A stretch of 64,000 nt of DNA from Candidatus Kerfeldbacteria bacterium (GCA_016207275.1 JACQPY010000012.1:1706-65705), one strand, 5' to 3'. Counted from the first letter of the stretch, positions 14,764 to 60,681 are shown. The notes: a model not told the origin generated them from the sequence alone. Made by a program: numbers and translations.

Positions 14764-14765
14764 TT

Positions 14766-15597: not shown

Positions 15598-15920
15598 GCG
15601 CCGCTCCCACCACCCCCGCCCGCGTAATTCCGTCCCTCGACCTCCCGATGGGATCGAGGTCGCCCCGAGCAAGGTCGAGGGGCGACAAGCTCGGGACGGA
15701 AAACGCGAGGCGGCCCCTCCCCCTTCGGCCTCCCGTTCAGGGTCTGAGGACCCCTCAGGGTCTCGAACGACGAGCTCATCTCGATGCCGAGCCCTCGATG
15801 CCGAGGCAGGGCTGAGAGGTCGGGCAGGAGGGGGAGACCACCCCGTCCCGACCGCGGAGCGCGTCGGGACACCCCTCCTTACAAAGGCGGAGATGAGATG
15901 AAGGTCGGCACCTCATCACA

Positions 15921-18498: not shown

Positions 18499-19209
18499 AT
18501 GGAGCAGCGATTTTCTTCAGAAACTGAACGTCAGCCTGGAGCACCAGATTCAGGTGAATCATTGGAACGCGCGGCTCAACGAAAACGGTTGTTCACCGTC
18601 CTGGCCGCCATCGGTGGGGCGGCCTTAGTACTGGGCGTGGTCGGTTTAGTCAACACGATTACCTCGCCGTTTCCGCGTCCGACCGTGCCGAACACGAACG
18701 GTCAGGAGCGGGTGCTCGAGGAACTGAAGCAACAGGACACGGACGGCGATGGCCTGAAGGACTACGACGAGGTTTTCACGTACCGGACTAGCGCTTTTGT
18801 CCGCGACAGCGACAGCGACGGTTTGTCTGATGGCGACGAAGTGGCGGCGCGAGCCGATCCGAACTGTCCGCCGGGCCAGTCGTGCGGCGCGGTGGCCGTG
18901 ACTAACGTCAACATCAACGGCGTGATCAGCAATCCGACGGCCAGCGCCCTGCGTAAAGCGTTAAAGCAGGCGGGCGCGCCGGCCTACATTATTGACCAGA
19001 CCGACGACCAGACGTTGCTCGAGCAGTACCGTGGCGTCCTGGTCGGCACCAATGCCAACGTCAGCCTTAAGCAAAGCGATTTGACGAACCTTTCAGCGGC
19101 CCAGATTAGGGAGTTGCTCAGATCGAACGGCGTGGCCGACGACGCGTCGCTGGCCCAGATTGATGACGAAACCTTGATTGCCATCTATCAAGATGCCTTG
19201 TCGAATTAA
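18499..19209 (+). CDS. Membrane-anchored protein with thrombospondin type-3-like Ca-binding repeats
   Basis: 236 aa. TM LFTVLAAIGGAALVLGVVGLV. DTDGDGLKDYDE and DSDSDGLSDGDE (DxDxDGxxDxxE) motifs. Confidence 0.55.
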   Translation: MEQRFSSETERQPGAPDSGESLERAAQRKRLFTVLAAIGGAALVLGVVGLVNTITSPFPRPTVPNTNGQERVLEELKQQDTDGDGLKDYDEVFTYRTSAFVRDSDSDGLSDGDEVAARADPNCPPGQSCGAVAVTNVNINGVISNPTASALRKALKQAGAPAYIIDQTDDQTLLEQYRGVLVGTNANVSLKQSDLTNLSAAQIRELLRSNGVADDASLAQIDDETLIAIYQDALSN

Positions 19210-22200
19210 TGCCCGCTGTGAACGTTTATCGAAAAAAGCTGGCGACTAAACCGGGAACTGAGTTGAGCGTCTCTGACGGTCGGGCTTCACGCTCTCCGAC
19301 ACGGCGAACGCTGCCGTACTTCGCCGTACCGTTCGCCACGGTCGTGGTGATTGGCAGCTTGCTGTTGCTGCCGCGCGCCGTGCCAGTTAAAGCTTTCTTC
19401 CCTCCCTTTCTTAATATTGGTCAGGAACTTTCCACGGTAGTCGGGGTTGGTGTTCCGGTTACCGAAACCGGCAGCATTCCCCAGGCCAAGACCAATATCG
19501 TCAATCGGATCCGCGAGCGCCTTAAAGATCTGCTCAAGGTCGCCGGCGACGTCGCCTACAAAACGGGCGTCCGAATTTTCTACCAGCAGCTGACCAACGT
19601 CACCACCGAGTTTATTCGCACCGCCGGCACCGGCCAAAAACCAATTTTCATCACTGATCCGCACTACTGGGAAAAGGTTTTTGACGCCGCCCAGAACGAC
19701 TTTCTCGACTCGGTCGGCAAGCAAGTGTTTGGTATTGAGCTGAGCCGACCGCTCGATGCCGAGAAGGAAAAGCAGATTGGCTTGCTGGTGCGAGGCATTC
19801 TTAACCCCGGCACGGTCTGCGAGGACGACTGCCAGAAGCGGTACAACGAGAAGCAGGTTAGGATTAAAGAAATCCAACAAGACCTCGGCATCGTCAAGCG
19901 CATGGAACCGGATCCGAACGTCGATCCGAACTGTCCGAAGTGCATTCCCTGCCCGATTGCCGGCGACCCGAACAAGAACCCGGCCTGGGATTCAAAAGGT
20001 CAGCAGTTCATTGATAAAAAGAAATGTCAGGCCGTGCTCGGCGACATCCTGTCGATCGAACGCGCTCAAGTGACCAGGGACTACACCAACTGTACGAACT
20101 CATGCCGGCGGCAACGCGGGGCCGTCCGGACCGACCCGATCCTGAAAGAAGTCGTCGGCAACGAAGCCGTCGCCGCCGCGGTCCAGGAGTACTACGATCC
20201 GCGAAAGAACGACTTCGGCAACATCCTGGCGGTTCTCAACAAGGCGGCTGACCGAAGTCAGAGCGCCGTCCGCGCTGAACAGACTGCTTTCGGGACAAAC
20301 ATCGCGCCGAGCCGAACGACCGCCGGCATCATCACGGCCCCGGCCGTGTTGGTGGAAGAACGTGCCAAGAAGGCGCTTCAAACGGCGACCAACGACGTTG
20401 ACATCGTCACCGGCTCGCGAATTGCCGACGTGATCAGCAAGGCGATCGGCAACGCCTTGATCCAACGGATCACTCGCGAGTGGTTTAATCGCAAGTGCGG
20501 CTTAAACCCGGACGCCTGCCGTCAGCCGGTCGGCACGTCGCCACAAGCGAGGTTCTTGTTTGGCAACCAACCGGCCCAGCTGGCCGCCGACATCAAACCT
20601 GTCCAGATTGGTCGTAATGATATTGTCCTGGGCGAGCCGTCGCGGAATCCCGTGCCGACCGCGGACATCCTGGAAGCGAGTGGTTTGATCGATTCGCGAT
20701 TTCGACAGGCCATTGAACAGCGACTGACAGTTCGCGAAGCACTCGACCAGGGCTTTCTCGACGCGACTCGGACCTTTGGGTATGACCGGGAAGGTAAGGA
20801 GCCGCTCGATGGCTACCCCTACCAGAGCATTTTGTACTTGAAAAAGTCGCGAATCGTGCCGGTCGGTTGGCAACTAGTAGCCGAATACATCCGTCAAGCT
20901 GAACCTCAGGACACCAGCCTTGGTGAGCTGATTAACCAATTCTCGATGTGCGGTCAGGATGCTGCGCATGACGCTGATCCAGCAGCCACCAAAGCCTGCT
21001 CAAATAATCGAACGCAAGTTTGTGCGGCTGACAGAGACTGTACGCCGACGCCGGGCGGAACGTGTCTCTCGACGACGAGTACGTGTGTTGGTGGTCCGCA
21101 GCCGGGCGCGGCTTGTACGTCTGACGTTGACTGTGCGTTTCCTGCTCCGACGTGTATGGAAACCTACTCACCGAGTCCATTCTGCGGCTTAGTCGATCCA
21201 GACTGGGTCTTGAAAGCGCCACTGACCTACTGCCGTAAGCAAGGTGCCGGCGAAGAATTAGTGACCAGGATTTTCCTGTGCGACGAAGATACCAACGCCA
21301 ACGGCCGGATTGACTGCAGCGAGGGTGTCGGCGGCGGCGACATCGGCCATTTTGAAATTCAACGCAAAGACGAGGTCTGTGTCGATGAGCCGACCTGCGT
21401 GGCCGAGAATGAAGACGGTTCGTGCTTGTCGTATGGGTACTGCTTCCAGGATCGTCGCACGTTCAGGTTCGACGGCGACCGCTGTCCCTCGTACTACGCC
21501 TCGTGTCAGGCCTACGCCGATCCGGATGGCAACAGCGTGTCCTTTCTCAAAAAGACGATCGACGTCAATGGCTGCTCGTCGGACAGTGCCGGTTGCAGCG
21601 CTTTCTGCAGCGACCGGCGCGACAAGGACGGCAGTTGGCTGTGCACGTCCGATCCTGGCCGCGATCCGGCCGTGGCCGCCGCGGCGACCAAGTGTCCGGT
21701 CGGCGAAACCTGCACGTGTCGATTGCCGAGCGGTGAGACCTGCACGGTCGGCAACGGCACAGATAATTGCACCACTAATTCTGGCGCCCGCTGTACGCTG
21801 GGCGCGAACTACAGCTACTTCGACCGCGACGTTGAAGTCTGCAGTGAAACCGACGCCGGTTGCCGGGAATTCATTGACGCGAATGGCTCTGCGAACCTGC
21901 TCGCCAACGGCGGCTTCGAGCTCTTCGAGGGTACGGCTGATGACAGCGGCGCGGCCGCCGACGACGTGGTCAAAGGCTGGGGCGGCGTGACGGCATTTAT
22001 CAGTACCTCGCATGCCCAAGTCGTGACGTCGGACCTGGGGGTGACGAACAATAACAAGTCGGCTGTCCGCCTGCCGGCCACGGGCGGCTCGACGCAGGGG
22101 CTGGTTTTCACCAACGACCGGCCGTCGAATACGCCGGCCCGGCAAGGTATTGATACCGGGCGGCCGCTCAGCTTCCGGACGTTTACCTTGTCGTACTACG

Positions 22201-24959
22201 GTCGGGCAGAAAATCCTGGCACCTCGTGCAGCGGCGCCTACGGACTACGGGCGGCCAACTCCTCATATGTAACCAGTGACAACGCCGTCTACACGCCAAC
22301 CTGGACGCGATTCTCGACCGTCATCACCTGGCCTGATCGCGGGTACGACAACAACCCAGACAACCACGTGGTTCAGGCCTTCGTCGAGGCTTCGTCGGAT
22401 TGCAACGTGCTGATTGATAACGTTCAGTTGGAAGCGGCCGACCAGGTAAGTGCCTACGCCGACTACGGGACGGCCAACCTCATCTACCTCAATGCTGATC
22501 GCCGGACCTGCGACCGGGTCGACGTCGGCTGTGAGAAGTACACGCCTGTGACCGGCGGCGGCGAGGCGATCACCGGCGTAGTCAATACGAAAGACCGCTG
22601 CTCGGCTGAGGTGGTTGGCTGCAAGCAGTACCGGAAAGAAGCGATCGATCACATACCCTTCCGAGCGGCAGTTGACCCGCTTAACCTCGTGCCGACGTCA
22701 GCCCGACAGTGCCGGGCCGACCAGGTCGGCTGCGAAGAGTACACCAACCTCGACGTCTTGGCCCAAGGCGGCGAAGCGCGGGAGTTTTTTACGGCCATCC
22801 GCCAGTGCGTCAAACCGGTGACCGGCGCGGCCGACCAGGCGACCTACTTTACTTGGGTCGGTGATGACCGGACTGGCTTCCAGCTCAAGTCGTTCCGCTT
22901 GAAGCAGTCCAACGTCGACGGCGGTCCTTGCACGAACATCGCCTTGGGCACCTCAACCAGTGACAACAACCCAGCCTGCGTCGATGCGGGTGGGGCCAAC
23001 TCGAACATCGCCCAGTGCGATCCGGCCGACGTCGGCGTTAATCCGGACTGCGCGCAGTACTTTGATAGCAGCGGCAATGTTTTCCACCGCCGGCAGAGCC
23101 GAACCGTTCCAGTCAGCGACGATTGCCATCCCTACCGTAATACCATTGATGAACGCAATAACCAGTCGAACGTGTACCTGGTGCTGGCCAGAGAGAGCAC
23201 CACCTGCGCCGCCGAAGCCGCCGAGTGTCGCGCGTTTACCGGCAACGCTGGCAGTAACACTCGGGTGATAGTCAGTTATAATTTTGAGAACTCCAACGCG
23301 GTCTCGGCCGACTGGCAATACGTCGGCGCCGGTTCGAACGTCAGTCCCAGCCCGGCCAGCGTCTCGGCCGGCGGCAAGTCGATGAGCGCGACCGGCACCG
23401 TCGCCACCCAAGACCACGTTCTCCAAGACAAGCTGCAGCAGAACAAGAGCTACACACTGTCGTTCTGGGCCAGTCCGGATTCGGCCACGACGCTCGATGC
23501 CTACCTGCTGATTAACGGCACCGTCACGCGTCCGATCGTCACCAGCCTTAACCTGGCGTCGGAGTGGCACCCGTACACCGTTGGTCCGGTAACGGTCGAC
23601 GTTGATCCGCAGGGTGTGCCGGTCCAGCTGCGACTGACCCTCCGCGACGGCAGTGGCAACCCGGCCACCGCCTACCTTGACAACCTCCAACTGCGCGAGA
23701 TCACCGACAGTCTATTCCTGATTGATAATTCCTTCCGGACTTGCGCTGATGCCGATCTCGGCTGCGAAGCCTACGTTGACCGGGCCAATGCCCGACACAA
23801 CCTTAAGAGCTTTACCCGTTTGTGCAGCCCCGACGTGCTTGGTTGCAGCGCCCTGATCGACACCCAGAATTCGTCGAGTCCCTTCCTCAGCCTGCCTTTG
23901 CGCGGCGTCCAGGTGCCGGCCGACGCGACCGTGAGCTTGGTCAACGAAAAAAATGCCCAGTGCTCGGCTGACGCGAAAGGCTGTACGGCGTTTGGTCAGC
24001 CGACGCTCAACGTCAGCAAGCGGGTGGGCGCATTCCAGACGGTTTACCTCAAGGATCAACCAGACAAGCACCTGCAGATTCTCTGTACCGCCAATGAACT
24101 GTCGTGCACCGAGTACACGGCCGACAGCGGCAGCAAAGAGTACTTTAAGAATCCCGGCGCGCAGACCTGCGAATTCAAACGGTTGACCGGTGACACCGGC
24201 TACCATTGGTACATCACGGGGACGACGTTCCGCTGCCCGGTGAATACGCCGCCGACCGATGGCCTGCCGACCGGCCGGGCTTGCGTCAAGACCTGCACGG
24301 GCGGCGAACGAGGCGGCTTGGCCTGCGTCAGTAACAACGATTGTCTAGAAGCAGTCGGCATCTGCAGCAGCGGCATTTGCCAGGGCGGCGGCGCCAATGA
24401 CGGGACCAGTTGCTCAGCTAACAGCGACTGCCTGGAAACCGCGAGCTGCACCGGCGACGATGCCGTAGTCGGACGAACCTGTCGGATCAACGCTGATTGC
24501 GGCGGCGGCCTGACCTGCGACAGTTGGGTTGGCAGCTGCCCGGAAGAACAAAGCGGCTGCAACGAGTATCGTGATCCCTCGGATCCAAAGTCCTGTCGGA
24601 CTAACTGCCCGCTGGAACTGTCCGGCGGCAAGCCGCTGTACGTCGATGATTCGTGTCAGCCGACGGTATGCCGCGGCGGAAAGAAGGACGGCGATTCCTG
24701 CCGTGATAACTCCGACTGTCCCGGCGTCTGCTCGAATGCCGCCCTGGCCTGCACCTCGTCGTCACAGTGTCCAAGCGGCGGGACGTGTTCGACCGCGACC
24801 TGTTCGGGCGAGGGAATTCCCGGCTGCCGTTCGTACTACTACTTAAAGCAAACGATCGAGCAGAATGCGGCCGAATGCAATGGTCGCGTTGACATTGCTA
24901 ACGGCTGCCGACCGTTCAACGACACGTCGAACCAGACCCTTAACTTCCGAGCGTTCTAA
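19209..24959 (+). CDS. Giant (1916 aa) secreted/membrane-anchored cysteine-rich surface protein with repeated C-x-[AST]-[DN]-x-D-C-x(3-6)-C modules
   Basis: N-terminal TM (YFAVPFATVVVIGSLLLL). Dozens of Cys in repeated disulfide-type motifs (CVSNNDCLEAVGIC, CSANSDCLETASC, CRINADCGGGLTC, CRDNSDCPGVC, CAADRDCTPTPGGTC). Start is adjacent to the upstream stop. Confidence 0.7.
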   Translation: MPAVNVYRKKLATKPGTELSVSDGRASRSPTRRTLPYFAVPFATVVVIGSLLLLPRAVPVKAFFPPFLNIGQELSTVVGVGVPVTETGSIPQAKTNIVNRIRERLKDLLKVAGDVAYKTGVRIFYQQLTNVTTEFIRTAGTGQKPIFITDPHYWEKVFDAAQNDFLDSVGKQVFGIELSRPLDAEKEKQIGLLVRGILNPGTVCEDDCQKRYNEKQVRIKEIQQDLGIVKRMEPDPNVDPNCPKCIPCPIAGDPNKNPAWDSKGQQFIDKKKCQAVLGDILSIERAQVTRDYTNCTNSCRRQRGAVRTDPILKEVVGNEAVAAAVQEYYDPRKNDFGNILAVLNKAADRSQSAVRAEQTAFGTNIAPSRTTAGIITAPAVLVEERAKKALQTATNDVDIVTGSRIADVISKAIGNALIQRITREWFNRKCGLNPDACRQPVGTSPQARFLFGNQPAQLAADIKPVQIGRNDIVLGEPSRNPVPTADILEASGLIDSRFRQAIEQRLTVREALDQGFLDATRTFGYDREGKEPLDGYPYQSILYLKKSRIVPVGWQLVAEYIRQAEPQDTSLGELINQFSMCGQDAAHDADPAATKACSNNRTQVCAADRDCTPTPGGTCLSTTSTCVGGPQPGAACTSDVDCAFPAPTCMETYSPSPFCGLVDPDWVLKAPLTYCRKQGAGEELVTRIFLCDEDTNANGRIDCSEGVGGGDIGHFEIQRKDEVCVDEPTCVAENEDGSCLSYGYCFQDRRTFRFDGDRCPSYYASCQAYADPDGNSVSFLKKTIDVNGCSSDSAGCSAFCSDRRDKDGSWLCTSDPGRDPAVAAAATKCPVGETCTCRLPSGETCTVGNGTDNCTTNSGARCTLGANYSYFDRDVEVCSETDAGCREFIDANGSANLLANGGFELFEGTADDSGAAADDVVKGWGGVTAFISTSHAQVVTSDLGVTNNNKSAVRLPATGGSTQGLVFTNDRPSNTPARQGIDTGRPLSFRTFTLSYYGRAENPGTSCSGAYGLRAANSSYVTSDNAVYTPTWTRFSTVITWPDRGYDNNPDNHVVQAFVEASSDCNVLIDNVQLEAADQVSAYADYGTANLIYLNADRRTCDRVDVGCEKYTPVTGGGEAITGVVNTKDRCSAEVVGCKQYRKEAIDHIPFRAAVDPLNLVPTSARQCRADQVGCEEYTNLDVLAQGGEAREFFTAIRQCVKPVTGAADQATYFTWVGDDRTGFQLKSFRLKQSNVDGGPCTNIALGTSTSDNNPACVDAGGANSNIAQCDPADVGVNPDCAQYFDSSGNVFHRRQSRTVPVSDDCHPYRNTIDERNNQSNVYLVLARESTTCAAEAAECRAFTGNAGSNTRVIVSYNFENSNAVSADWQYVGAGSNVSPSPASVSAGGKSMSATGTVATQDHVLQDKLQQNKSYTLSFWASPDSATTLDAYLLINGTVTRPIVTSLNLASEWHPYTVGPVTVDVDPQGVPVQLRLTLRDGSGNPATAYLDNLQLREITDSLFLIDNSFRTCADADLGCEAYVDRANARHNLKSFTRLCSPDVLGCSALIDTQNSSSPFLSLPLRGVQVPADATVSLVNEKNAQCSADAKGCTAFGQPTLNVSKRVGAFQTVYLKDQPDKHLQILCTANELSCTEYTADSGSKEYFKNPGAQTCEFKRLTGDTGYHWYITGTTFRCPVNTPPTDGLPTGRACVKTCTGGERGGLACVSNNDCLEAVGICSSGICQGGGANDGTSCSANSDCLETASCTGDDAVVGRTCRINADCGGGLTCDSWVGSCPEEQSGCNEYRDPSDPKSCRTNCPLELSGGKPLYVDDSCQPTVCRGGKKDGDSCRDNSDCPGVCSNAALACTSSSQCPSGGTCSTATCSGEGIPGCRSYYYLKQTIEQNAAECNGRVDIANGCRPFNDTSNQTLNFRAF

Positions 24960-24961
24960 CT

Positions 24962-27900
24962 ATGGGCCGCCGGTCAACCTATCTCTGTCTTGCCTCAGTC
25001 GCCGCCCTGTCGACCGCGATGGTGCTGCTGTGGTCGACCTCCGCTCGGGCTTTGACGATTACGCCCATGCCGCCGACGGCGACCCAAGTCTCGCCAACGC
25101 AGGAGACGATTACCTGGCAGACTGACGCGACGACCACCTCCGACCAGGTCCAGTACGGATTGAGCTACAGCCTGCAGTGGACCGCCAAGCAGCTGAGCAT
25201 TAGCGGCTCGCCGCGAAATGAAACAGTGGTCGGGGTTAAGGCGGTCAACGCGCAGCGCGCATTCGTTGCAACTGCCCCGACCGGCGGGACGTCGGTGCTG
25301 TACGAAACCACAAACGGCGGAACCAGCTGGACCGAGCGGTGGTCGTACACACTCGAATCGCCGGGAGCGCTCGAAGTCGACGTGCCGGCTAACCGAGTGT
25401 ACGTCGGCACGGCCAATGGATTCGTCCATGTTTTGACGTTAAGCGGTAGCTCGGTGGCGCAGTGCGACACGCAGCTGGGCATTACCGATATGGCCCTGGC
25501 CAACAGAAAGTTGTGGGTAGTGGGGCTCGGAACGACCACGGTCAAAGAAGTTGATCCGGCCAGCTGCGCCGTCGTTAACCACGCCGTCAACCTCAGCGCG
25601 GTTGATCCGTCGGCGACCTACCTGACTGACATCGCCGCGATAACTATCGGTGGTACCACGACGCTGTGGGTGACGAGCAACGACGTATCGATCGCCACCT
25701 CGACCAACAGCGGTTCAACCTGGAGTACGGCCGTGCTCGGCACGCCTGGCTCGCCGCTGGGCTTCGAGGACATCGGGGCGGTTTCGAACGCTCGCGCCTA
25801 CGCGGTCGGCCGGAACGGCGGCATCTACCTGTACAGCGGCGGAACGTGGAGCGTCGCGCCGACGACAACCAGCCTTGACTTTTTGAGCCTCGGCGTGGGC
25901 AGCGACAGCAAGATTTTCGCCTTCGGCTGCTGCACCGGTGGGTTCGATTACTACTCGTTTAGCGGCGACGGCAGCAGCTGGTCGTCATTGGTGACGATGG
26001 CGACCAGCACCAATGCGCTGGCCGCTTCATTTGTTACGCCCAACGTCGGATGGCTGGGCGGTTTTTCCGGCCGGCTGGCGTTGCACAGCGTCGCTTACCC
26101 GAGCAGCACGCCGGCCAGCAACGGGACGAACCACACGGCTACGGTGAGCGGTCTGCAGGAGGCGACCTACTACCACGCCAGTGCTATTTCGAATACCTCG
26201 ACCCAAACCGCCGAGTCAGGTAACTTCGCGTTCAAAACGCAGGAACTAACCATTACTGATCCGCTCGGTCCGACGGCCACCACCACCTCGTCGAGTGCGA
26301 CAATTACCTGGAACACGCCGAATCAGGCGAGTTTGGCGGCGGATTCGAGAATATACTTATCGGCCAATCCTGGTTGGCAGTCAACTTCGATTAGCGGGTC
26401 GTCTCTAAGAGGAATCAGCGCCGTTGGTGACGGCGCTTACTTAGTTGGCCAAACCAGTAACGCCATTTTTAGAGCCAACGGCCTTGCCCCCAACCCCCCG
26501 TTGAGTTTAATAGCTCCACCCGGCAGAGCAGAAGGAATTGTGATGGTTGGTAATCGCGGGTGGGCGGTCGGACAGAACTTTATCATGCGGACGAATGACG
26601 CCGGAGCAATTCACGACGGAACGTCATGGGTGAGCCAATCGAATGGCGTTCCCTCCAGCACGTATTTCACCAACGTGACCGCTATTGACGATCAACACGC
26701 TTGGGTAGTCGGCGATAATATTATCCTCCGAACCACTGACGGAGGAAGTAATTGGAACACCGTCCTTGCTCCGCTCCGGGTCTTGTATGATACCGCAGTC
26801 GTTGACGCCCTGACGTTGGTGGCGGCCGGTGATAATGGTTATATTCACCGTAGTACCGATAGCGGGGCAACCTGGACGCAGCTTCCAAGAACATTGCCTG
26901 ACGCTGCCGTTTTTGGGTTGAGTTTTGCCAGCGCAACTGCGGGGTGGGCGGCTGGGTTTGGCGGAGTAATTGGTCAGAGTATCGATGGAGGAAAAACATG
27001 GTCGGAACCATTCAACGCTACCTCCTGTGGATTTAATACAACCACGTTCTACGATGTCGCCGCGATTTCCCCGAACGACGTGTGGTTCGTCGGAAGTGGC
27101 GGAAAAGTACTCCATTGGACTGGCGCCGGTTCGTGCCCCCAGACTGTTTTAATTGGTACCGCCACAAATTTGCGAAGCGTCGATGTTGATGGAGCGAATG
27201 TCTGGATAACTGGGGAAAATGGATTAGTCGCGCGGTACGGAGTCGATACAGCCAGCTCCAGCTATCGTTCACTCACTGATGCTTCGCTAACCCGGGCTCA
27301 TTCTTTGACCGTTAATGTTCCACCCCTTACCCCCAACACCACCTACAACTATTTTGTCCAATCCTACGACGCGGCCGGCTACACCGCCGTCAGTCCATTA
27401 AAAACATTTACTACCCAGGCCGTTCCGCAGCTTCAGGTAACACCGTCAAGCCTAAGCTTTACCGCGACGCAGGGACAAAATCCGGCGCCGCAGACCTTCC
27501 TCGTCAAAGACCAGAACAACGGCAACATCGGCGGGTGGAATCTAAGTTCAACCACCGCCTGGTTATCGTCCCCCGGCGCGGTCACACCGACCAGCGGGCC
27601 GGGCACGCCGTCCGATACGGTCAGCGTCACCCCGAACGTGGCCGGTCTTACGGTTGGGACGTACACTGGCACGGTCACCGTCAACGCCACTGATCCAGGC
27701 GTCGATCCGACCTCGACGCCGAAGACGGTTAACGTCTCATTGACGATCACGCCGCCGCCCAAGCTGACGGTATCGAGCACCTCGTTGTCGTTTACCGCCC
27801 AAGAGAACGGCTCGGCGCCCGGCCTCCAGACAGTGGACGTGACTAATGGCGGGGGCGGAACACTGACCTACACTACCGACACCGGCGGTACGACCTGGCT

Positions 27901-30118
27901 CAGCGCCACGCCGAACGTGCCGCCCGACGGCGCCAACCGGTACGCGACGCCGAGTAAAGTTAACGTGGCACCGACCACGACGGCCTTGGCGCCGGGCACC
28001 TACAACGCCACCATCACCCTTGACGGCGGCCCGGGTGTGGACAGCTCGCCGCAGCCGATCGCAGTAACCTACGTCATTACCGCCGCGCCGCGCTTACAAC
28101 TGACGCCCGGACCAAACCCGACTTTGGCGTTCACCGCCACCCAGTCGTCGGGAACCGACCCGGCGCCGCAGGACGTGGTCGTGCAGAACGCCGGCGGCGG
28201 GGCGATCACCTGGACGGCGACGAACCCGGTCAGCTGGATTACGTTGACTAATTCAAGTGACGGCAACGGGCCGACGACGATGCGGATTCAAGTGCGTAAT
28301 GTCCTGGCCGCCGGCGACTACACCGCCGCCATCACCGTCACCGCCACGACCGGCGGCGGGTCAGTCGTCGACAGCCCGCAAACCATTGCCGTCCAGTTCC
28401 ACGTTGACCCGGCGCCGGTGCTGTCGGTCAGCAAGTCCAGCCTGACGTTCACCACCACGCAGGGTACGAACCCGCCGGAACAAACGTTCATCGTTCAGAG
28501 CGGCGCGCCGGCCGGCTGGAGCGGCACGACCAGCGTCACGCCGCCCTTAAACTGGCTGTCGATCACGCCGACCACCGGCACCAACTACAATGACCCGAAT
28601 GATCCGGTGCACGTCCGGGTTGACGTCGCTGGCTTGGCCGTCGGTACCTACGCCGGCACGATCACCATCAGTTCGTCCGGCGCCGTGCCTTCCTCGATGA
28701 CCATCAATGTGACCTTGAACGTCACGGCGCCGCCAGTGCTCGACGTTAATCCGCGTTCGATCACGGTGACCACCGATGAGGGCACGACCGCCACGACTCA
28801 GCTTGGAATCTTCAACAACGGCGGGGCGGGCACGACCATGAACTGGGATATGGCCCAGCCGGCCGCCACCTGGGTTCGTTTATCGTTGACCGCCAGCTGC
28901 GCTGGTCCGTTCGGACCGATCAGCGGCGCGTTGGTCGGCGGACAGTCGGTCGTGGTCACGGTCTGTATCGACACGGTCAATCCGACGCTGTTGACGCCGG
29001 CGGCGTATGCTTCGACGCTGACCATCAACGCGCCGGGCGCGCAACCGGCGGCTGCCGGCGTCAACAACGTCCCGGTGACGCTGAACGTTCTGGCCGACAC
29101 CACCGGTCCGACGGTCGTCGCTGGCAGTATCATCATCGACGCCGACGGCGTGTGCGTCGGCGGCGGTCCGCCGTACTACTTCGGCCGAATCAAGTGGCAA
29201 ACCAGCGAACCAGCCGACTCGCGCGTCGAGTGGGGTGAGCAATTAGTGAGCGGAGTTCCGCCGTATGAACTCGGCTCACTGGTGAGGCCGGAGGGTCTCG
29301 ATACCGCGGCCCACACAGGCGGGGTGGTTGATCACGAGGTCATACTCGATAACTTAAACGGCATTGTCGGCGGCCACACCTACTACGTTCGGTTAACTTC
29401 AATGGATCGGTACCGCAATGTTAGTCCCTGGACCGACCACTTTGAGGTCCCACGCAGCAACGAATTCTTGAGCTTCACCGTGCCGAATGCCTGCGATACT
29501 ACGCCGCCGACCAACGTGATTCTGACCGTGCCGCCGGGCACCCTGTCGGGAACGGTCAACGTCAACCTCAGCGCCGAAGACCAGTCGCGGATTGATCGCT
29601 TTGAAATCTATGAGGGGTTAACGCCCGGTCGTTCGGTGGTGGCCACGGTAGCCGTTCCGGCCGCCGCCTGCTTCTCGACCGGACCGACCTTCAGCTGCAG
29701 CGTCACCTACGCGCTTGATACACGCCTGCTGCCTGACGGTCAGGCCCAACTGTACGCCCGGGCCTTCGACCTGGCCGGGAACTCGGCCGATTCGCCCAAC
29801 GTGGCGATTACCGTGAACAATGCCGTGCCGCGGGTGTCGAACGTCAAGGCCGTCCCGTCAGTACTGGCTAACGGCCTGTGGCAGGCGCTCGTTACCTGGG
29901 ACACTGATCTGCCGTCGAACTCGCTGGTGGACTACGGCATGGAAGACGACGACGGCAACTTCAACGGCTACACCGATCAGCAAAGTCCTGATGACAGCGG
30001 TCGGAACGACCTGATCGCCGGTCATCAAGTGACCCTGACCAATTTGCCGGCCGGCCACATCTTCCACTACCGCGTGACCTCCTGCTCATCGGCTAACCCG
30101 ACCTTGTGCGGAAACTAA
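24962..30118 (+). CDS. Giant (1718 aa) secreted protein: signal peptide, BNR/Asp-box beta-propeller region, then multiple Ig-like/BACON-like beta-sandwich repeats
   Basis: Signal peptide MGRRSTYLCLASVAALSTAMVLLWSTSARA. At least five S-x-D-x-G-x-T-W Asp-boxes (TTNGGTSW, STNSGSTW, TTDGGSNW, STDSGATW, SIDGGKTW). Repeated ~90-aa units with an L-x-V-S-x-S-S-L-S-F-T...W-L-S...G-T-Y-T-G-T-V-T-V pattern. Confidence 0.7.
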   Translation: MGRRSTYLCLASVAALSTAMVLLWSTSARALTITPMPPTATQVSPTQETITWQTDATTTSDQVQYGLSYSLQWTAKQLSISGSPRNETVVGVKAVNAQRAFVATAPTGGTSVLYETTNGGTSWTERWSYTLESPGALEVDVPANRVYVGTANGFVHVLTLSGSSVAQCDTQLGITDMALANRKLWVVGLGTTTVKEVDPASCAVVNHAVNLSAVDPSATYLTDIAAITIGGTTTLWVTSNDVSIATSTNSGSTWSTAVLGTPGSPLGFEDIGAVSNARAYAVGRNGGIYLYSGGTWSVAPTTTSLDFLSLGVGSDSKIFAFGCCTGGFDYYSFSGDGSSWSSLVTMATSTNALAASFVTPNVGWLGGFSGRLALHSVAYPSSTPASNGTNHTATVSGLQEATYYHASAISNTSTQTAESGNFAFKTQELTITDPLGPTATTTSSSATITWNTPNQASLAADSRIYLSANPGWQSTSISGSSLRGISAVGDGAYLVGQTSNAIFRANGLAPNPPLSLIAPPGRAEGIVMVGNRGWAVGQNFIMRTNDAGAIHDGTSWVSQSNGVPSSTYFTNVTAIDDQHAWVVGDNIILRTTDGGSNWNTVLAPLRVLYDTAVVDALTLVAAGDNGYIHRSTDSGATWTQLPRTLPDAAVFGLSFASATAGWAAGFGGVIGQSIDGGKTWSEPFNATSCGFNTTTFYDVAAISPNDVWFVGSGGKVLHWTGAGSCPQTVLIGTATNLRSVDVDGANVWITGENGLVARYGVDTASSSYRSLTDASLTRAHSLTVNVPPLTPNTTYNYFVQSYDAAGYTAVSPLKTFTTQAVPQLQVTPSSLSFTATQGQNPAPQTFLVKDQNNGNIGGWNLSSTTAWLSSPGAVTPTSGPGTPSDTVSVTPNVAGLTVGTYTGTVTVNATDPGVDPTSTPKTVNVSLTITPPPKLTVSSTSLSFTAQENGSAPGLQTVDVTNGGGGTLTYTTDTGGTTWLSATPNVPPDGANRYATPSKVNVAPTTTALAPGTYNATITLDGGPGVDSSPQPIAVTYVITAAPRLQLTPGPNPTLAFTATQSSGTDPAPQDVVVQNAGGGAITWTATNPVSWITLTNSSDGNGPTTMRIQVRNVLAAGDYTAAITVTATTGGGSVVDSPQTIAVQFHVDPAPVLSVSKSSLTFTTTQGTNPPEQTFIVQSGAPAGWSGTTSVTPPLNWLSITPTTGTNYNDPNDPVHVRVDVAGLAVGTYAGTITISSSGAVPSSMTINVTLNVTAPPVLDVNPRSITVTTDEGTTATTQLGIFNNGGAGTTMNWDMAQPAATWVRLSLTASCAGPFGPISGALVGGQSVVVTVCIDTVNPTLLTPAAYASTLTINAPGAQPAAAGVNNVPVTLNVLADTTGPTVVAGSIIIDADGVCVGGGPPYYFGRIKWQTSEPADSRVEWGEQLVSGVPPYELGSLVRPEGLDTAAHTGGVVDHEVILDNLNGIVGGHTYYVRLTSMDRYRNVSPWTDHFEVPRSNEFLSFTVPNACDTTPPTNVILTVPPGTLSGTVNVNLSAEDQSRIDRFEIYEGLTPGRSVVATVAVPAAACFSTGPTFSCSVTYALDTRLLPDGQAQLYARAFDLAGNSADSPNVAITVNNAVPRVSNVKAVPSVLANGLWQALVTWDTDLPSNSLVDYGMEDDDGNFNGYTDQQSPDDSGRNDLIAGHQVTLTNLPAGHIFHYRVTSCSSANPTLCGN

Positions 30119-30122
30119 TCGT

Positions 30123-33100
30123 ATGACCGTCCGACCTTGGCCACGATCGAAGATTAATCACCGGGCGTTTGTCCGCAGGCTACTTATTGCTTCCGCGACA
30201 ATGATTGTTGGGGTAGCGACAATATTCTCGTTGGTGCGAGTGGCCGCGATCCCAGACGCGGCCGAAGCGCGACAGTGTTTACCAGGTCAAGGTTACTGCC
30301 CGACCAGCCCGACCTCTCGGGTTTGTGACGGCGACTGCTACGGCAACCAGCGGTGCGTGGCTGAGCCGTTTGAAACCGTCGGTACGTTGGTGCCGGATTC
30401 GACATGCAGCGGTTCGACCACCCTGACCATTTCTAACGTCAGTCACGGCACGCCGGGGTCTGACCGAGCGACCATCACCTGGACGACTAACCTGGCCGCC
30501 AGCACCGAGCTTCGCTACGGCCTGACCAGCTTCCTCGGCTCCACGCAGGTTAATACCGTGCCGAGCTCAACCAGCCATTCAGTCACCATTACCGGCCTGC
30601 AGCCGTCAACCACCTACTATTATCAAGCCTACTCAGAAACCGGTCCTGACCCCGACGACCTGCGCGCGACCAGCAGCCTTCGTAACTTTACCACCTCGAG
30701 CGGCGCGCTCGGCGGGACCTTACCGACCATCGTCCTCGGACCCGAAGAACGGGTCAACATCGATACCGCCCGCATCACCTTCAAGACCAACGTTCCGACC
30801 GCGGCGCTGATTGAGTTCAGCACAGAACCGAACACTCAGCCTGATTCCGGTAATCCCGGCTACAGCCAGGTCTGCGACGCCTCGGCCAACTGCAGTTCGC
30901 CCCCACCGCAGCCGAACGTTTTAAACATCGATCACACCATCAATCTGACGGGCTTATCACAGCCGTCGAGCCCATACTTCTACCGCATCACGATTATTGA
31001 CGCCAACCGCAACGTCTTCGCGCTGCCTGATCGCTTTACCACGACGGCCAGCTCGAACGACTACATCTTTTCCACCGGCGACTGCGACGACGGTACGCCG
31101 CTGCGGCAGTGCAACGCCGATAAAAAGTTCTGCCGACCCGGCAACCGCGACCCGGTTTTCGACTGTCGGCCGAATATCGCCTGTCCCTACACCTGCCCGG
31201 GCGGGTCAACCTGCGCAGAATCCGGCGACTGCATACAAGATCCGGCCCTCGGCACCTCGCCGACCGAGTGCAATCCCAAGTCGTGTTACCTCAAGTGCGA
31301 CGGCAACAGCGGCAGCTTCAGCGGTCGTCGCTGCGGCATTGACGCCGACTGCAACGGCGGCAAGTGCATTGTCGGCTCGTTCACTACGCCGGCCGGGCCG
31401 GGCTGCTACGCCAGCTGGCCGTCGTGCGACGCGAACGTCATCCTGAAAGTCAGGCCCGACCGCGTCTGCGACAAGTGGCTGACCTGCAAGACCTCGCTGC
31501 CGGTGACCAACGCCCAGGGCCAGACCCAAAACCAGTGCTTAGATTTGACCATCTGCGATTCCTTGACGCCGAACGGCCAGTGCAACAACGTCCTCGAAGG
31601 CCGGCAGTGCGACAACGACCCGTTGCGGTTTTGCGCCGACGATGCTGACTGCCCGGGCGGCCGGTGCTCGCTCGCTAACGAACCGCGGGCCCTGACCTTC
31701 CGCACGCCGGAAGAAGTGTCGCAAATCAGCGGCTTGACCGGCTATTCCGTCGCTGGTCTCGACTGGCATGGCCAGCCGAACTCACTGAAGATTGATGGTT
31801 ACTACCCGCTGTCGGTCGCCAAGCAGGTCGGCACGCGCTTCGACATTCCCAACAGCAATTTCGAGGATTCGGTCGTGGTTCAGCGATGCCAGAACCCTAT
31901 TACGAAGTCGTGCACTCAGGACAACGACTGCACGCCGAGCAAGTGCATTTTCTTGAGCTCGCTGTCGCACCCGAACGTGCGCAACATCTTGGTCGCCGAG
32001 CACTGGGAGCCGGTCAATCCGGTCGGCTCGACCAAGAACGCGGCCGTGACGCTCGACAGTGAGACGTCGAAAACCAGCCCCAACCACATGCTGAAGATTA
32101 CCCCCTCGAACCTGGCTGATTCCGGTGCGCAGACGTCGGCCGGCGTTGAGCTGCGAACGTCTGCTCAGGCTGAGTACCTGCTCAGTTTCCGGATCCGGTC
32201 AGAGCAGAACGAGCAGCCCGTGACGGTCAGCCTGGTCAACCCGACGACCGGCGATCGGCAAGTCCTCGGCGACCTTTTCTTGACCACTGGCTGGCAGGCC
32301 TTGCTGCTCGGTCCGAAAGCGGGCGTCAACGGCGACACCCGAATTGCGTTTACCACGCCGGTCACCGGCGAACCGGTGTCGTTCTGGATTGATGATGTGG
32401 CGATGCTGCCGGCCCTGAAGGTCAGCGATACGAAGTACGTCCCGCAATCCTGCCGTCTCTACCCGAGCGACGGCGCGCCGACCTGCGACTTCACCGACCG
32501 CAACGGTTTGCTGTTTAAAGGATTAAAAGGCTACTGCCTGGAGCGCGACTCGCTCAATTCAGCGATCTGCTTGTCGTGGTGGCCGGTTGACGCAGTCTTT
32601 GGCGACAGCGTGTTTGGGGCGGCTGACCAGGAAGCCGGCTACCGCGACCGCCAGCCGCTCTATGCCTGCGCCGAGGCGGTCGGGCAGTCTTCGAGCTTTA
32701 ACACCGGCGCAACAATATTTACCGGCGTTGACTGCGATGCGGACACGGCCGGTCCAGTGATTGCGCTCTATCCGGGCGGATCCGGAGGGCTATGCAACGA
32801 GCAGCTCGGCCCGTACCGGCCAATGACGACAAAATTCCCTGCAACAGCTGATGCCATTAAATTATACGGCCAAAATTTCGGTGGGCCTTGTAATACGATA
32901 GAAGATAGAGCCGAATGTCGGGACGGTACTCAGCCGGGATTCTGCTTCTGTTCAAAGCTAGGATACGACTCGGGGTTGACAACGCCGTCCGCAACGGATC
33001 AGAAAATACACAAATATGACGTTGAGTACTTCCGTGTCCATATGATGCGGTATAACCAGAACGGCGACAGCACGTGGGACAGAATTGTGCCAATCGCGGG

Positions 33101-34763
33101 GGATATCATTCTCAACGAGGGCAATGGGTGGTTTGCCCGGGCAGGAGCGGACGCATCTAACTGTGCAGGCATGTGGTTTGAACTGAAGTGGGATTCGGTT
33201 GACCAACACCTCACGGGAATCAACTGGGGGGCGCAACGATGCGCAAATAGCAATGAGGCCGCGTCAGGATTCTGGGCTCAAGGTTTGTTCTTCATGAAGG
33301 AGCGCTGCACAAAACTGGTCCAGGTAGCAACTGACGATAGCGTGACAGCCTGGGCAGACCGGACTTCGAACGCAGCGACGTACGTGGTACCCGATCTCAA
33401 CTATCGCTACGTCAATGATTTGGCGCCGTTCGGCACGGCCGCCCCGCGGACCGTTGAAGAGCCGGATGACTGGAATAAGTTTGAGCCGTTGACAGTCCAA
33501 GGACCAGACGTCAGCCGGCCCTCGCCGAATCAAGTGCGAGCCGGCAGCGCCTACGCTTGCAAAGGAAATTGCAGCGGTCGGGTGTGTTCGAACTTGAGCG
33601 GCCGCCAGGCCGGGCAGTTCTGCCTGGATTCCTCCGACTGTTTCGACGACAATGGCACGCCGAAGGATTCAACTGACGACCGTCAGGGCACCTGCGAAGG
33701 CAATGGTTTTTGCGCCACGTACGATGCGGGCACAAAGACCTATGACTTCGACCAGGAAACAGCTAAAGCCTGCACTCGCGGTTACAGCACTGGCACGCGC
33801 TGCGACGCCAACAGCAGCGTCAATAAAGGAGCGACCTGCACGGCTGACGCGGATTGCCAATTTACGACTGGCCGGTGCGTGAATCTGCCAGGCCAACTGC
33901 GTGGCAAATGCGACGGCAACAGCGGCAGCAAGTCTAGCAGTTCGTGTTTCAATGACAGTGAATGCCGCGATACAGCTGGACGCTGCGTCACCGGCGTCTG
34001 TCCAGCTGGCCAGCAATGCTGCAGCCAGCCGAACGAAGAGTGCATTGGCGGCGCAGCCTCGAATCGCGGCACCCAGACGCTGAACTCGTCCGTACCGACG
34101 CTGGCGAGCGGCAGCTACGCCCAGTACAACTTAATGCGCCTGTTTGCCAAAACCTACGGCCTGTGGGAGTGGAACATAACCAGCGGCAAGTACGAGCAAC
34201 AAACATCGTTCAGTTCTTGGAACCCGCCAACGACGCTCTGCAAGGTCTGCTCTGGCGGAGCCGACGCGAACAAAGCCTGCACCGCTGACGGCGATTGCAC
34301 CGGCGGCACCTGCGTAGACGCGGTTCGTCACTCGTCTGAAGCGGTGACGAGCGAACCGACCGCTGACTACTGCGCCATCAAGCCGACCATCACCAACATT
34401 TCCAATCGTGACGTCGCCTCGGTCGTACTCGATGAAGGTGTAACGTACACCTTGCGGTTCAATAGCAACGTTGATCTGGAACAGCGGCCGCTGACCGAGG
34501 TAGCGATTGATTGGGGTGACGGCGATACTACGGTTGACGGCAACTTACGAATTGCCCCGCGCGACGATCCGAATCGGCCGCATGCCTACACTCACGTCTA
34601 CCACTGCGGGCGCAAAGGGATCTGTAATTACCAAGTGAAAGTGCGCATCCGCGACAACTGGGGCTGGTGCGACAACGGGGTGGCTAGTACGCCATGTAAG
34701 CCGACCGTCGGTACCAGCACGGCTGACTGGCAGAACGGCCCGCTCATCCAGGTAGTTCGCTAA
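30123..34763 (+). CDS. Giant (1546 aa) membrane-anchored cysteine-rich surface protein sharing the CxxDxDC-type modules with the 19209 gene
   Basis: N-terminal TM (LLIASATMIVGVATIFSLV). Motifs CADDADCPGGRC, CTQDNDCTPSKC, CTADADCQFTTGRC, CFNDSECRDTAGRC, CTADGDCTGGTC, CGIDADCNGGKC. Confidence 0.7.
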   Translation: MTVRPWPRSKINHRAFVRRLLIASATMIVGVATIFSLVRVAAIPDAAEARQCLPGQGYCPTSPTSRVCDGDCYGNQRCVAEPFETVGTLVPDSTCSGSTTLTISNVSHGTPGSDRATITWTTNLAASTELRYGLTSFLGSTQVNTVPSSTSHSVTITGLQPSTTYYYQAYSETGPDPDDLRATSSLRNFTTSSGALGGTLPTIVLGPEERVNIDTARITFKTNVPTAALIEFSTEPNTQPDSGNPGYSQVCDASANCSSPPPQPNVLNIDHTINLTGLSQPSSPYFYRITIIDANRNVFALPDRFTTTASSNDYIFSTGDCDDGTPLRQCNADKKFCRPGNRDPVFDCRPNIACPYTCPGGSTCAESGDCIQDPALGTSPTECNPKSCYLKCDGNSGSFSGRRCGIDADCNGGKCIVGSFTTPAGPGCYASWPSCDANVILKVRPDRVCDKWLTCKTSLPVTNAQGQTQNQCLDLTICDSLTPNGQCNNVLEGRQCDNDPLRFCADDADCPGGRCSLANEPRALTFRTPEEVSQISGLTGYSVAGLDWHGQPNSLKIDGYYPLSVAKQVGTRFDIPNSNFEDSVVVQRCQNPITKSCTQDNDCTPSKCIFLSSLSHPNVRNILVAEHWEPVNPVGSTKNAAVTLDSETSKTSPNHMLKITPSNLADSGAQTSAGVELRTSAQAEYLLSFRIRSEQNEQPVTVSLVNPTTGDRQVLGDLFLTTGWQALLLGPKAGVNGDTRIAFTTPVTGEPVSFWIDDVAMLPALKVSDTKYVPQSCRLYPSDGAPTCDFTDRNGLLFKGLKGYCLERDSLNSAICLSWWPVDAVFGDSVFGAADQEAGYRDRQPLYACAEAVGQSSSFNTGATIFTGVDCDADTAGPVIALYPGGSGGLCNEQLGPYRPMTTKFPATADAIKLYGQNFGGPCNTIEDRAECRDGTQPGFCFCSKLGYDSGLTTPSATDQKIHKYDVEYFRVHMMRYNQNGDSTWDRIVPIAGDIILNEGNGWFARAGADASNCAGMWFELKWDSVDQHLTGINWGAQRCANSNEAASGFWAQGLFFMKERCTKLVQVATDDSVTAWADRTSNAATYVVPDLNYRYVNDLAPFGTAAPRTVEEPDDWNKFEPLTVQGPDVSRPSPNQVRAGSAYACKGNCSGRVCSNLSGRQAGQFCLDSSDCFDDNGTPKDSTDDRQGTCEGNGFCATYDAGTKTYDFDQETAKACTRGYSTGTRCDANSSVNKGATCTADADCQFTTGRCVNLPGQLRGKCDGNSGSKSSSSCFNDSECRDTAGRCVTGVCPAGQQCCSQPNEECIGGAASNRGTQTLNSSVPTLASGSYAQYNLMRLFAKTYGLWEWNITSGKYEQQTSFSSWNPPTTLCKVCSGGADANKACTADGDCTGGTCVDAVRHSSEAVTSEPTADYCAIKPTITNISNRDVASVVLDEGVTYTLRFNSNVDLEQRPLTEVAIDWGDGDTTVDGNLRIAPRDDPNRPHAYTHVYHCGRKGICNYQVKVRIRDNWGWCDNGVASTPCKPTVGTSTADWQNGPLIQVVR

Positions 34764-37700: not shown

Positions 37701-38424
37701 GGCCGCGGGTATCCGGGCGGCCGAGGATTTTAACTTGAATGAGTTTCAAACCAACTTAGGATACGATTCCGACGCTGAAGGCCTGAAACAGATGATAGAC
37801 GATTACTTCATCGGCAAACTGGGCATGTCCGAGGATCAGGCGCTGTCGATCGCCAACGACATGTCGCATGCCGCCGAAAAGGTCAACCACTGGGGAGTGG
37901 CGCGGGCAGTCAAGACCGACACCGTTACCGGTCGGCAGCACTTCCAGGATGAGCTTGATCGAGAAATGGAGGTAAGCGCTGAGATCCGGAAAGGCGACTT
38001 TGAAGGCACTATCCGTCGCTTTAATCGTCTGGCCTGGGGCAAAGAAGTGATTGGCGCCGGTACTGACATGGAGCGCGCCTCGCCAGCAGAACGCGCCGAG
38101 TACTATCGCCAGACCGGTGACCGCAGCTTCGTTTCTCTGCCTTACGGCCTGGCCTTCTTGGCTGAAAACTTCGGAAAGTCCGAGCGGAACATCAAAACCG
38201 GTCGGTTCAACCCCAACTATGCCACCAAGTTGTTCGACCCGGCAAACCGCCAGATGCTTGAAATGTTAGTAAAAGCGCTTGGTAATTTTACCCAGCTCGG
38301 GGATTCGCGTAAGGTCACGATGCCGGAAATCTTAGCACTCATACGGCAGTTCGGCGCCAGGGATCGCAGCGCGGCAGGCGATTTCGACCGCTTGCGAGAC
38401 TTCTGGCGCCGGTCCGGCCGCTAG
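34768..38424 (+). CDS. VirB6/TrbL-like polytopic membrane protein with a ~900-aa charged/coiled-coil cytoplasmic tail
   Basis: 1218 aa. The N-terminal ~330 aa hold at least 6 hydrophobic helices rich in aromatic and small residues, typical of TrbL/VirB6. The remainder is a highly charged, low-complexity K/E/R-rich region. Confidence 0.5.
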   Translation: MVLINFIQRHQKPTAVILAVVLLSAFWLAVPHEVKAVGEGIIANILSWLAYQLITLMANLLVVVVNILVAVAQYNNFLGAPAVERGWVIVRDIANMFFIVVLLIIAFGTILRLENYRYNRLLARLIVMAILVNFSKFIAGFFIDFGQVIMLTFVNAWRDVAAGNITHALGLTEIIQLRNQPLPSGQEISSGAVLTALLLGLFLVTVAVIVLAIMAIVLILRVLALWFLVVLSPLAYLFRTYPATEKYAARWWQEFGRYVVVGPVMAFLLWLSLAVMTAPVQFSEEVFTVVKTTEGSAVIEPTDSATANNVAAAISTIGQSDKLLGYITGIMLLVGTLMITRELGVAGGQLAGQWAEKIRGFATKAAVVGGAGAAFGALGVAGVTVGRPAAKLAGKGIAAGAKGLGNAIIDRAQVALGGIPLRPSVWAEGFKRASARRRHDWEEKRWQAANKNMEEALKPAVGKKMSAARRAWKFAVGAAGSPEYFKYNLLTFGNFGKMIAGRGGEVLGGDFSEASEDYNRTRERAKAMARERELMQGSRDLGQFYVQETAGQRVQSDVNAEAEKIRSERTRDLRADVNFFEEKDHEGKVVRRLPLAEYISGLMRDEGYDPTSGDERTVRRRAALEKEHDEQLARSRLVKEEQQGQLTAKVAEVAKDRAANPASRYGRKTVKKDKEEVEVSFADALDEAMDKKFPKNFNRYLESQGIDPRAKDDGTKLKIEALRPGYEAIFKKEFEDNWNKEQAEAELELSPEYQDPMATREERYRQEILKSAPENELRRRGQAVHEEEVKKLRDQAAAIRAGGLTEGQHERREKELIEVIKKLEQIDKDLKTHSPGTPEYSRLMEERAEREKQRQLLERYLKPKPGEKPPLNDDEKKEGEKEAEKLEEAANLQEGMAKRRVTDTELRLMDEAIDAQEKKVRDQAKVVSRLRPAVPKELRRELRASIAEKKKEITTEQWQEQLSIFEDAVRRGDASTAAAAGIRAAEDFNLNEFQTNLGYDSDAEGLKQMIDDYFIGKLGMSEDQALSIANDMSHAAEKVNHWGVARAVKTDTVTGRQHFQDELDREMEVSAEIRKGDFEGTIRRFNRLAWGKEVIGAGTDMERASPAERAEYYRQTGDRSFVSLPYGLAFLAENFGKSERNIKTGRFNPNYATKLFDPANRQMLEMLVKALGNFTQLGDSRKVTMPEILALIRQFGARDRSAAGDFDRLRDFWRRSGR

Positions 38425-42841: not shown

Positions 42842-42845
42842 CGAT

Positions 42846-43547: not shown

Positions 43548-43662
43548 AGCTTGTAGCGGTTAGCTTTTAGGGACCCATCGAATAACCACTTGCCTGATGA
43601 AAATTAATCACTCTTCGCTACCGCTACCAGCTACCAGCTAAAAGCTATCAGCTTCTTCAACC

Positions 43663-60676: not shown

Positions 60677-60681
60677 ATCCG

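Follow-up and report, generated by a model that had tools for sequence, protein, structure and literature searches.

A stretch of 64,000 nucleotides (nt) from a Candidatus Kerfeldbacteria bacterium (GCA_016207275.1, JACQPY010000012.1:1706-65705), here called the window, with all coordinates counted from its first letter, encodes two giant cysteine-rich proteins that share a short repeated module with four cysteines (C1 to C4). The two giants, A and C, belong to a tightly packed string of genes (S, A, B, C and D) followed by genes of a type IV secretion system (T4SS). A sequence-only reading of the stretch had described two giants of 1916 and 1546 amino acids (aa) on either side of a BNR protein, and the open reading frames (ORFs) bear this out, the protein between them being B. 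The string and the T4SS genes downstream of it are as follows:

18499..19209, plus strand: protein S, a small transmembrane (TM) protein with bacterial TSP3 repeats (PF18884, 34.5 bits)
19209..24959, plus strand: protein A, an ORF of 1916 aa with 95 Cys
24962..30118, plus strand: protein B, 1718 aa with 15 Cys and no modules (PSII_BNR at 3.4e-13, BACON_2, Pur_ac_phosph_N)
30123..34763, plus strand: protein C, an ORF of 1546 aa with 81 Cys
34768..38424, plus strand: protein D, polytopic and VirB6/TrbL-like, with a long charged C-terminal extension (TrbL, weak, E = 0.0057)
42329..45564, plus strand: PrgI (VirB3-like, 1.1e-07), a TraC-like protein and a VirB4 ATPase (P-loop_TraG, 4.3e-28)

The intergenic gaps S/A, A/B, B/C, C/D and D/E measure 0-5 nt; the stop codon of S overlaps the start of A, and D begins 5 nt past C. 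Protein S has one TM segment, and its TSP3 repeats are of the calcium-binding type. In D, eight hydrophobic segments precede a hydrophilic extension of about 800 aa that is rich in Lys and Glu, and the protein resembles the 'extended VirB6' proteins mentioned in PMC12857230. The housekeeping genes LeuRS, Sua5 and KsgA lie directly upstream of the string.

Proteins A and C contain 4.96% and 5.24% Cys, respectively, and both carry the module in the form C1-x6-12-C2-x2-[DN]-x-[DE]-C3-x2-10-C4, about 20-37 residues long. When 92 instances are aligned, the consensus is CxGGxxxGxxCxxDxDCxxGxC, in which all four Cys are invariant and Gly is favoured at C1+2, C1+3, C2-3 and C4-2. Once the copies are aligned the Cys spacing proves to be conserved: five residues always separate C2 from C3, while loop 1 varies from 6 to 12 and loop 3 from 2 to 10 residues. 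The pattern originally proposed, C-x-[AST]-[DN]-x-[DE]-C-x(3-6)-C, captured a real motif, but it is too strict at its third position, matching only three sites in A and two in C, and it fails four of its own examples (CRINADC, CADDADC, CTQDNDC and CGIDADC). All eight peptides quoted in its support are present in the proteins.

The many copies asserted for the motif are borne out by counting. Each giant has six occurrences of the core C-x2-[DN]-x-[DE]-C against an expectation of 0.07-0.36, and none of 1000 shuffles (global, local and Cys-position-preserving) equals the observed counts. With a profile hidden Markov model (HMM) seven copies are found in each protein (13 clear and one with a long loop 3), and no match to the profile occurs in any other ORF of the window. 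The two orthologue families of A and C together yield 124 non-identical instances. Among 910 profile matches 776 retain all four Cys; the remainder are partial alignments, and none shows a Cys substitution. Disulfide pairing was also sought from correlated loss of Cys, an attempt that gave no pairing signal since there are no instances with a substituted Cys. Paralogy of A and C was rejected, as BLASTP finds only the short motif in common; together with the shuffles and the alignment of 92 instances, this agrees with the earlier description of a disulfide-type unit shared by the two giants, which are otherwise non-homologous. An iron-sulfur or zinc cluster reading of the Cys was likewise rejected, given the Sec-type N-termini, the fn3 and CBM domains and a spacing unlike that of metal clusters.

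The copies are distributed as below, with their occurrence among 11 orthologues of A and 14 of C; AlphaFold2 (AF2) confidence is given as predicted local distance difference test (pLDDT):

20997..21155, plus strand: modules 1-2 of A (aa 597-619 and 626-649; profile HMM), between the N-terminal domain and the Cys-rich core; only 2 of 11 orthologues have module 1, whose four Cys are lost together as a block
24294..24518, plus strand: modules 3-5 of A, in tandem (aa 1696-1719, 1724-1747 and 1747-1770; profile HMM and AF2); 5 of 11 orthologues have module 4
24669..24788, plus strand: modules 6-7 of A (aa 1821-1841 and 1841-1860; profile HMM, AF2 pLDDT 83-86), jointly absent in 2 of 11 orthologues
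31296..31946, plus strand: modules 1-3 of C (aa 392-415, 496-515 and 589-608; 21.8, 32.7 and 24.6 bits), with Cys kept in 11-14 of 14 orthologues
33585..33986, plus strand: modules 4-6 of C (aa 1155-1191 with a long loop 3, 1227-1252 and 1263-1288; profile HMM); modules 5-6 are in only 4 of 14 orthologues
34248..34313, plus strand: module 7 of C (aa 1376-1397; 31.2 bits), in 12 of 14 orthologues

Across the orthologues of A, which are about 55% identical, 83% of its Cys are invariant and the exceptions fall in four-Cys blocks. Whole-block indels are seen in A at 602-623, 1716-1738 and 1834-1851 (numbered as in P0001, an identical protein from an NCBI 'Candidatus Kerfeldbacteria' metagenome-assembled genome (MAG), that is, window numbering minus 3) and in C at 392-415, 589-608 and 1227-1288. 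Since the variable Cys come in blocks of four, entire modules are either present or absent. The modules are located at domain junctions. Their number among homologues ranges from 0 to 7, hence the module is an adjustable addition and no part of the core of the family. At the DNA level no tandem repeats were found except two trivial 2-copy matches, indicating that the copies are old and that recent duplication can be rejected.

The remaining parts of the giants are of more familiar kinds. Protein A consists of an N-terminal hydrophobic segment, a helical N-terminal domain, a Cys-rich core, a CBM_4_9 domain and the C-terminal tandem modules, and two of these elements are placed as follows:

19311..19367, plus strand: hydrophobic segment of A, a putative signal anchor (aa 35-53; Kyte-Doolittle mean 2.07)
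23265..23582, plus strand: CBM_4_9 carbohydrate-binding domain of A (aa 1353-1458; Pfam PF02018)

The CBM_4_9 match passes its gathering score (36.3 bits against 25.9), and the family profile of A matches the CBM4 domains of laminarinase 16A and of xylanases in the PDB. In protein C an N-terminal hydrophobic segment is followed by two fn3-like domains, Cys-rich regions, a CBM4-like domain and a conserved C-terminal domain, and its family profile matches fn3 and CBM4 structures. Protein B contains BNR/YCF48-like propellers, BACON_2 and fn3/Pur_ac_phosph_N. As to the N-terminal membrane anchors ascribed to both giants, each does have one hydrophobic segment (aa 35-53 in A, aa 16-34 in C), the only one in the protein; its nature is putative, either an uncleaved anchor or a cleaved signal peptide. 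The AF2 model of A 60-580 is mostly helical but too poor to use (mean pLDDT 50), and Foldseek returned only generic coiled-coil noise for it against the PDB (E > 1).

A second Cys motif, C-x6-C-x2-[YF] with the consensus C-s-a-D-x-x-G-C-x-x-Y, runs through A from 21483 to 24569 (aa 759-1787). It is present in 11 copies (12 if Leu is permitted at the last position) where 0.6-2.3 are expected, its Cys are all invariant across the 11 orthologues, and 6-11 copies occur in every homologue of A or of the A::C fusion described below that was checked. No Pfam model covers it. This motif is better conserved than the module with D-x-D and is the conserved Cys feature of the family; the sequence-only reading had missed both this hairpin motif and the T4SS context.

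The module is real and conserved, is gained and lost as a unit, and is promiscuous across proteins. Its profile (30 positions) was searched against 1.84 billion representative proteins and retrieved 593 at E ≤ 1e-3 and 70 at E ≤ 1e-10, spread over Binatia, Acidobacteriota, Planctomycetota, Nitrospirota and the Candidate Phyla Radiation (CPR). Some proteins have tandem arrays that read CxGGxNDGxxCxxDxDCPGGxC, with as many as 16 matched stretches in one protein. At least 134 of the 145 newly retrieved proteins among the top 150 matches are unrelated to A or C, and those named in their source are each a "hypothetical protein" from Binatia, Terriglobales, Phycisphaerae and Nitrospirota MAGs. Many of the matches have signal-peptide-like N-termini, and the domains that accompany the module include FG-GAP, PQQ propellers, reprolysin, cohesin/dockerin and PEP-CTERM. 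When 69 module-bearing proteins were compared with Pfam, DUF7107 was found in 10, EB in 9, Dickkopf_N in 7, and Dumpy_DPY and Squash in one each (the latter at 7e-8), and in most of these proteins the repeat was not covered by Pfam. From these profile matches we conclude that the module is a widespread and poorly annotated bacterial repeat whose core has already been named in Myxococcales.

By score, the copies in the window lie outside every curated family. Full-length A and C give no Pfam or NCBIfam match to the motif (for TIGR04201, none at E ≤ 1), and to that extent the earlier description of the module as previously unnamed is correct; it needs qualification in that the core matches TIGR04201 (Myxo_Cys_RPT) below threshold and copies of the module in other bacteria sometimes pass DUF7107. 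TIGR04201 matches the isolated C-terminal segment of A at E = 0.002 (18.2 bits, three stretches) and the segment of C at E = 0.056 (13.6 bits), both below the cutoff of 25, with C2, C3 and C4 of the module (core C-x2-D-x-D-C-x2-G-x2-C) aligned to profile positions 5-22. That model dates from 2012 and was derived from Myxococcus xanthus TraA, whose Cys-rich tandem repeats are about 22 residues long, have three invariant and two marginal Cys, and were suggested by the authors to form a rigid stalk presenting a PA14 domain (PMC3325183). The resemblance lies in a tandem or dispersed repeat within a surface protein, TraA presenting a lectin-like domain for cell-cell contact. The Kerfeldbacteria unit, however, has four invariant Cys, one of them an addition at the N-terminal side, and a longer, Gly-rich N-terminal loop (C1-xGGxxxGxx-C2), and its proteins differ from TraA in being putatively anchored at the N-terminus, in belonging to a monoderm, in lacking MYXO-CTERM and in carrying CBM4/9 instead of PA14. 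The usual hosts of TIGR04201 are Myxococcales proteins, typically with MYXO-CTERM, whereas here the host is Candidatus Kerfeldbacteria and the lone hydrophobic segment is N-terminal.

Other named families come less close. DUF7107 (PF23416) scores 10.6 bits on A 1692-1879 (E = 0.76), short of its gathering score of 24.6, while an unrelated module-bearing protein with a bacterial array (P0142) passes that score with 36.6 bits. In bacterial tandem arrays DUF7107 spans C2 to C4 of one unit and the whole of the following unit; it differs from the module as a 48-residue unit with more Cys and of unknown function. On the Cys-rich segments Dickkopf_N (PF04706; E = 0.46, 11.3 bits) and EB (PF01683; E = 1.2, 9.7 bits) also stay below their gathering scores. 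The small metazoan disulfide modules Dumpy DPY, EB and Dickkopf_N are built on a comparable core, C-x-[ST]-[DN]-x-[DE]-C, and in Dumpy such units are spacers in a very large extracellular protein, but the numbers of Cys differ from the module (DPY 4 in another register, EB 8, Dickkopf_N 10) and the matches to the window proteins are non-significant.

Relatives of A and C in other genomes point to a common origin of the two as parts of one protein. We scanned GTDB species representatives with the N-terminal domain of A and found relatives in 149 species of Kerfeld-, Uhr-, Falkow-, Jackson- and Kuenenbacteria and other Patescibacteria, and loci were fetched for 80 of these species. Two distant relatives, P0012 (2843 aa) and P0013 (3116 aa), combine the parts corresponding to A and C in one polypeptide, and a single A + C ORF of 2250-3800 aa is present in at least 35 Patescibacteria species (loci L002, L020, L022 and others), with D directly next to it. 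Protein B is absent from the loci with fused A and C. Judging from these ORFs, A and C are two halves of one conserved Patescibacteria protein; because the fused form is found in so many species and lacks B there, the split with B inserted is a derived state, seen in Kerfeldbacteria-like loci, and B appears to be a clade-specific insertion. A fibre of 150-200 kDa subunits, as once imagined for the giants, is not what these data suggest: nothing indicates polymerisation, and the supposed subunits are halves of a protein that most relatives encode in a single ORF.

The gene order KsgA, S, A, (B), C, D recurs among the 80 species loci wherever the contig is long enough. S lies upstream of A in most of them, nearly all loci of sufficient extent have D next after C or after the fused A::C, and PrgI and VirB4 come downstream in the same order in the window, L001 and L002. 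Patescibacteria have been described to possess an MPF-FATA-like T4SS cluster with VirB4, PrgI/VirB3, a VirB6-like protein, VirB2-like pilins and a cell-wall hydrolase, and without a relaxase; in that survey "no adhesins, such as PrgB, were detected" (PMC12102498). Southlakia, the one species in which this has been tested, cannot grow epibiotically without this T4SS, to which no function has yet been assigned (PMC11665869, PMC12857230). The cluster in the window is of the same type, with P-loop_TraG, PrgI, the weak TrbL match and two T4SS_pilin proteins, one of which also carries SLT. Both proteins with the T4SS_pilin (VirB2-like) domain are unusually long (46876-48381, 501 aa; 49637-51169, 510 aa), and the second is the one fused to the SLT lytic transglycosylase domain. 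A protein of 234 aa inside the cluster (46190-46894) gives a near-threshold Mobilization_B match (25.8 bits against a cutoff of 27); apart from it, no relaxase was found among the ORFs scanned.

What the module does has to be judged from its predicted shape and its relatives. An AF2 model of A 1648-1916, based on the 11 orthologues, has a mean pLDDT of 63, with the five modules mostly at 65-88 and 49 at the end of module 5. In all five, short strands contain or adjoin C1, C2 and C4, and [DN]-x-[DE] forms a one-turn helix immediately before C3. The sequence-only reading had likened the Asp-rich unit to a calcium-binding or disulfide-stabilised stalk module. In a calcium-binding module, D-x-D and backbone carbonyls would chelate Ca2+ and stiffen the stalk as in cbEGF, LDLa or TSP3. 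Asp is indeed common, at 64% for C2+3 and 73% for C2+5 among instances selected by a pattern that itself admits [DNSTG] and [DENSQG] at these positions, and the first gene of the string, S, has genuine TSP3-type repeats, so that calcium may matter for assembly. However, each module offers only two acidic positions, often occupied by N, S, E or Q, and none of EGF_CA, LDLa, TSP3 and EF-hand was reported on four Cys-rich segments at E ≤ 10, with the HMMER filters dropping most matches above about 0.1. The helix seen in AF2 speaks for a structural part as well, and in squash inhibitors the equivalent DSD segment is a structural 3-10 turn. On this combined evidence the conserved Asp/Asn most likely stabilise the one-turn helix that places C3, and Ca2+ chelation is improbable. 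The likeness to squash inhibitors raises another possibility, namely that the units are knottin-like and block host or environmental proteases at the cell surface. Squash knottins (MCoTI-II and EETI-type trypsin inhibitors), the Ascaris carboxypeptidase inhibitor and Dumpy DPY are the best matches of the module profile among PDB sequences (E 0.002-0.1), the squash spacing C-x6-C-x5-C-x3-C (C-x6-C-x2-D-S-D-C-x3-C) is that of C1-C4 with the short helical turn at DSD in common, and one module-bearing protein has the Pfam Squash match mentioned above. These E-values are nevertheless marginal for a short, Cys-biased profile, and no match to the Squash family was reported on the window segments at E ≤ 10. 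Squash knottins (PF00299; MCoTI-II, EETI-II) are free inhibitors of 28-34 residues with six Cys, whereas the module has four and is embedded in giants; a cystine knot (C1-C4, C2-C5, C3-C6) is therefore impossible, and loop 1, the reactive site in squash inhibitors, is here variable, Gly-rich and 6-12 residues long. We regard an inhibitor function as very improbable.

Equally improbable is that the copies merely reflect convergent composition, that is, extracellular sequence rich in Cys, Asp and Gly with no modular identity. Such an origin would suit the lack of overall homology between A and C, the shortness of the module with its variable loops, and the sub-threshold level of the best matches to curated models, but it was already disfavoured by the shuffles, which preserve local composition or even Cys positions and never equal the observed counts. 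Conserved Gly at non-Cys positions, the indels of whole modules and the 70 proteins retrieved at E ≤ 1e-10 also contradict it. A different doubt concerns the giants themselves, which might serve the cell envelope in general or be S-layer-like, their genes lying beside those of the T4SS without a functional link. The housekeeping genes directly upstream and the Sec-type N-termini of A and C, neither of which has a recognisable T4SS domain, would fit with this. On the other hand, the string S-A-(B)-C-D is kept with near-zero gaps in the 80 species loci examined, and the fused A::C directly abuts the VirB6-like gene, so mere adjacency seems unlikely.

The best-supported function of the module is that of a stalk or spacer. 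More specifically, we infer, with a probability of roughly 0.6, that it is a disulfide-stapled strut in the split, exported, lectin-bearing host-contact arm of the Patescibacteria T4SS. Each module would form two intramodule disulfides, with the Asp/Asn-stabilised turn positioning C3, and would serve as a stiff, protease-resistant spacer between globular domains, neither binding ligands nor acting as a catalyst. An ancestral A::C protein would have been split in the Kerfeldbacteria clade, and the BNR/BACON protein B inserted between its halves. The giant would be exported by means of its N-terminal hydrophobic segment, carry CBM4/9 lectin-type and fn3 domains, and form the surface arm by which a chromosomal MPF-FATA-like T4SS makes contact with the host, while the modules would set the reach and geometry of that arm through their stiffness, protease resistance and adjustable length. 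The large PrgB of pCF10 offers a parallel as a surface protein that is encoded with an MPF-FATA-type T4SS and proposed to act in cell-cell contact, although A and C have no detected sequence or domain similarity to it and are rich in Cys. PrgB is not known to be Cys-rich.

Several points weigh against the strut interpretation. Disulfide pairing and rigidity are assumptions, the AF2 alignment is shallow (11 sequences; mean pLDDT 63 for the whole model), and Foldseek found no PDB analogue of the C-terminal model of A (0 matches). Patescibacteria are largely anaerobic, hence the formation of disulfides is an assumption. Many homologues have zero modules, which means that the module cannot be essential to the function of the family. 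The proposed link to the T4SS is drawn from the order and close packing of the genes, D is assigned to VirB6 on a weak match (E = 0.0057), and neither A nor C showed homology to PrgB or other known T4SS adhesins.

A clean definition of a widespread four-Cys bacterial repeat, nearly all of it annotated as "hypothetical", would be a modest result alone, even as it links TIGR04201 and DUF7107 to a squash-like local geometry. Moreover, a Cys-rich spacer in a giant surface protein would hardly surprise a specialist, and the T4SS context matters more: conserved directly upstream of a VirB6-like gene, the giant is a concrete and testable candidate for a T4SS component in contact with the host. It is tempting, but doubtful, to go further and regard the A::C giant, split in this genome and with a BNR protein inserted, as the extracellular organ of host contact still missing from the essential, non-conjugative T4SS of Patescibacteria, a membrane-anchored, disulfide-stapled lectin arm that bridges the gap between episymbiont and host, with 0-7 modules tuning its reach to different host envelopes. 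If true, A::C would add a new, lineage-defining T4SS component where the published survey found no adhesin.

A few other features of the window deserve mention. Scans for tRNA and against Rfam were both without matches. The GC content is 0.50 at 12001-16000 and 0.46-0.50 at 60001-64000, lower than in the rest of the window (0.54-0.64). The LeuRS gene (11132-14116) has an inserted ASCH domain (aa 285-385, 28.7 bits), and for the LeuRS at the equivalent position in locus L002 (1-2883) a NUDIX domain is listed instead.

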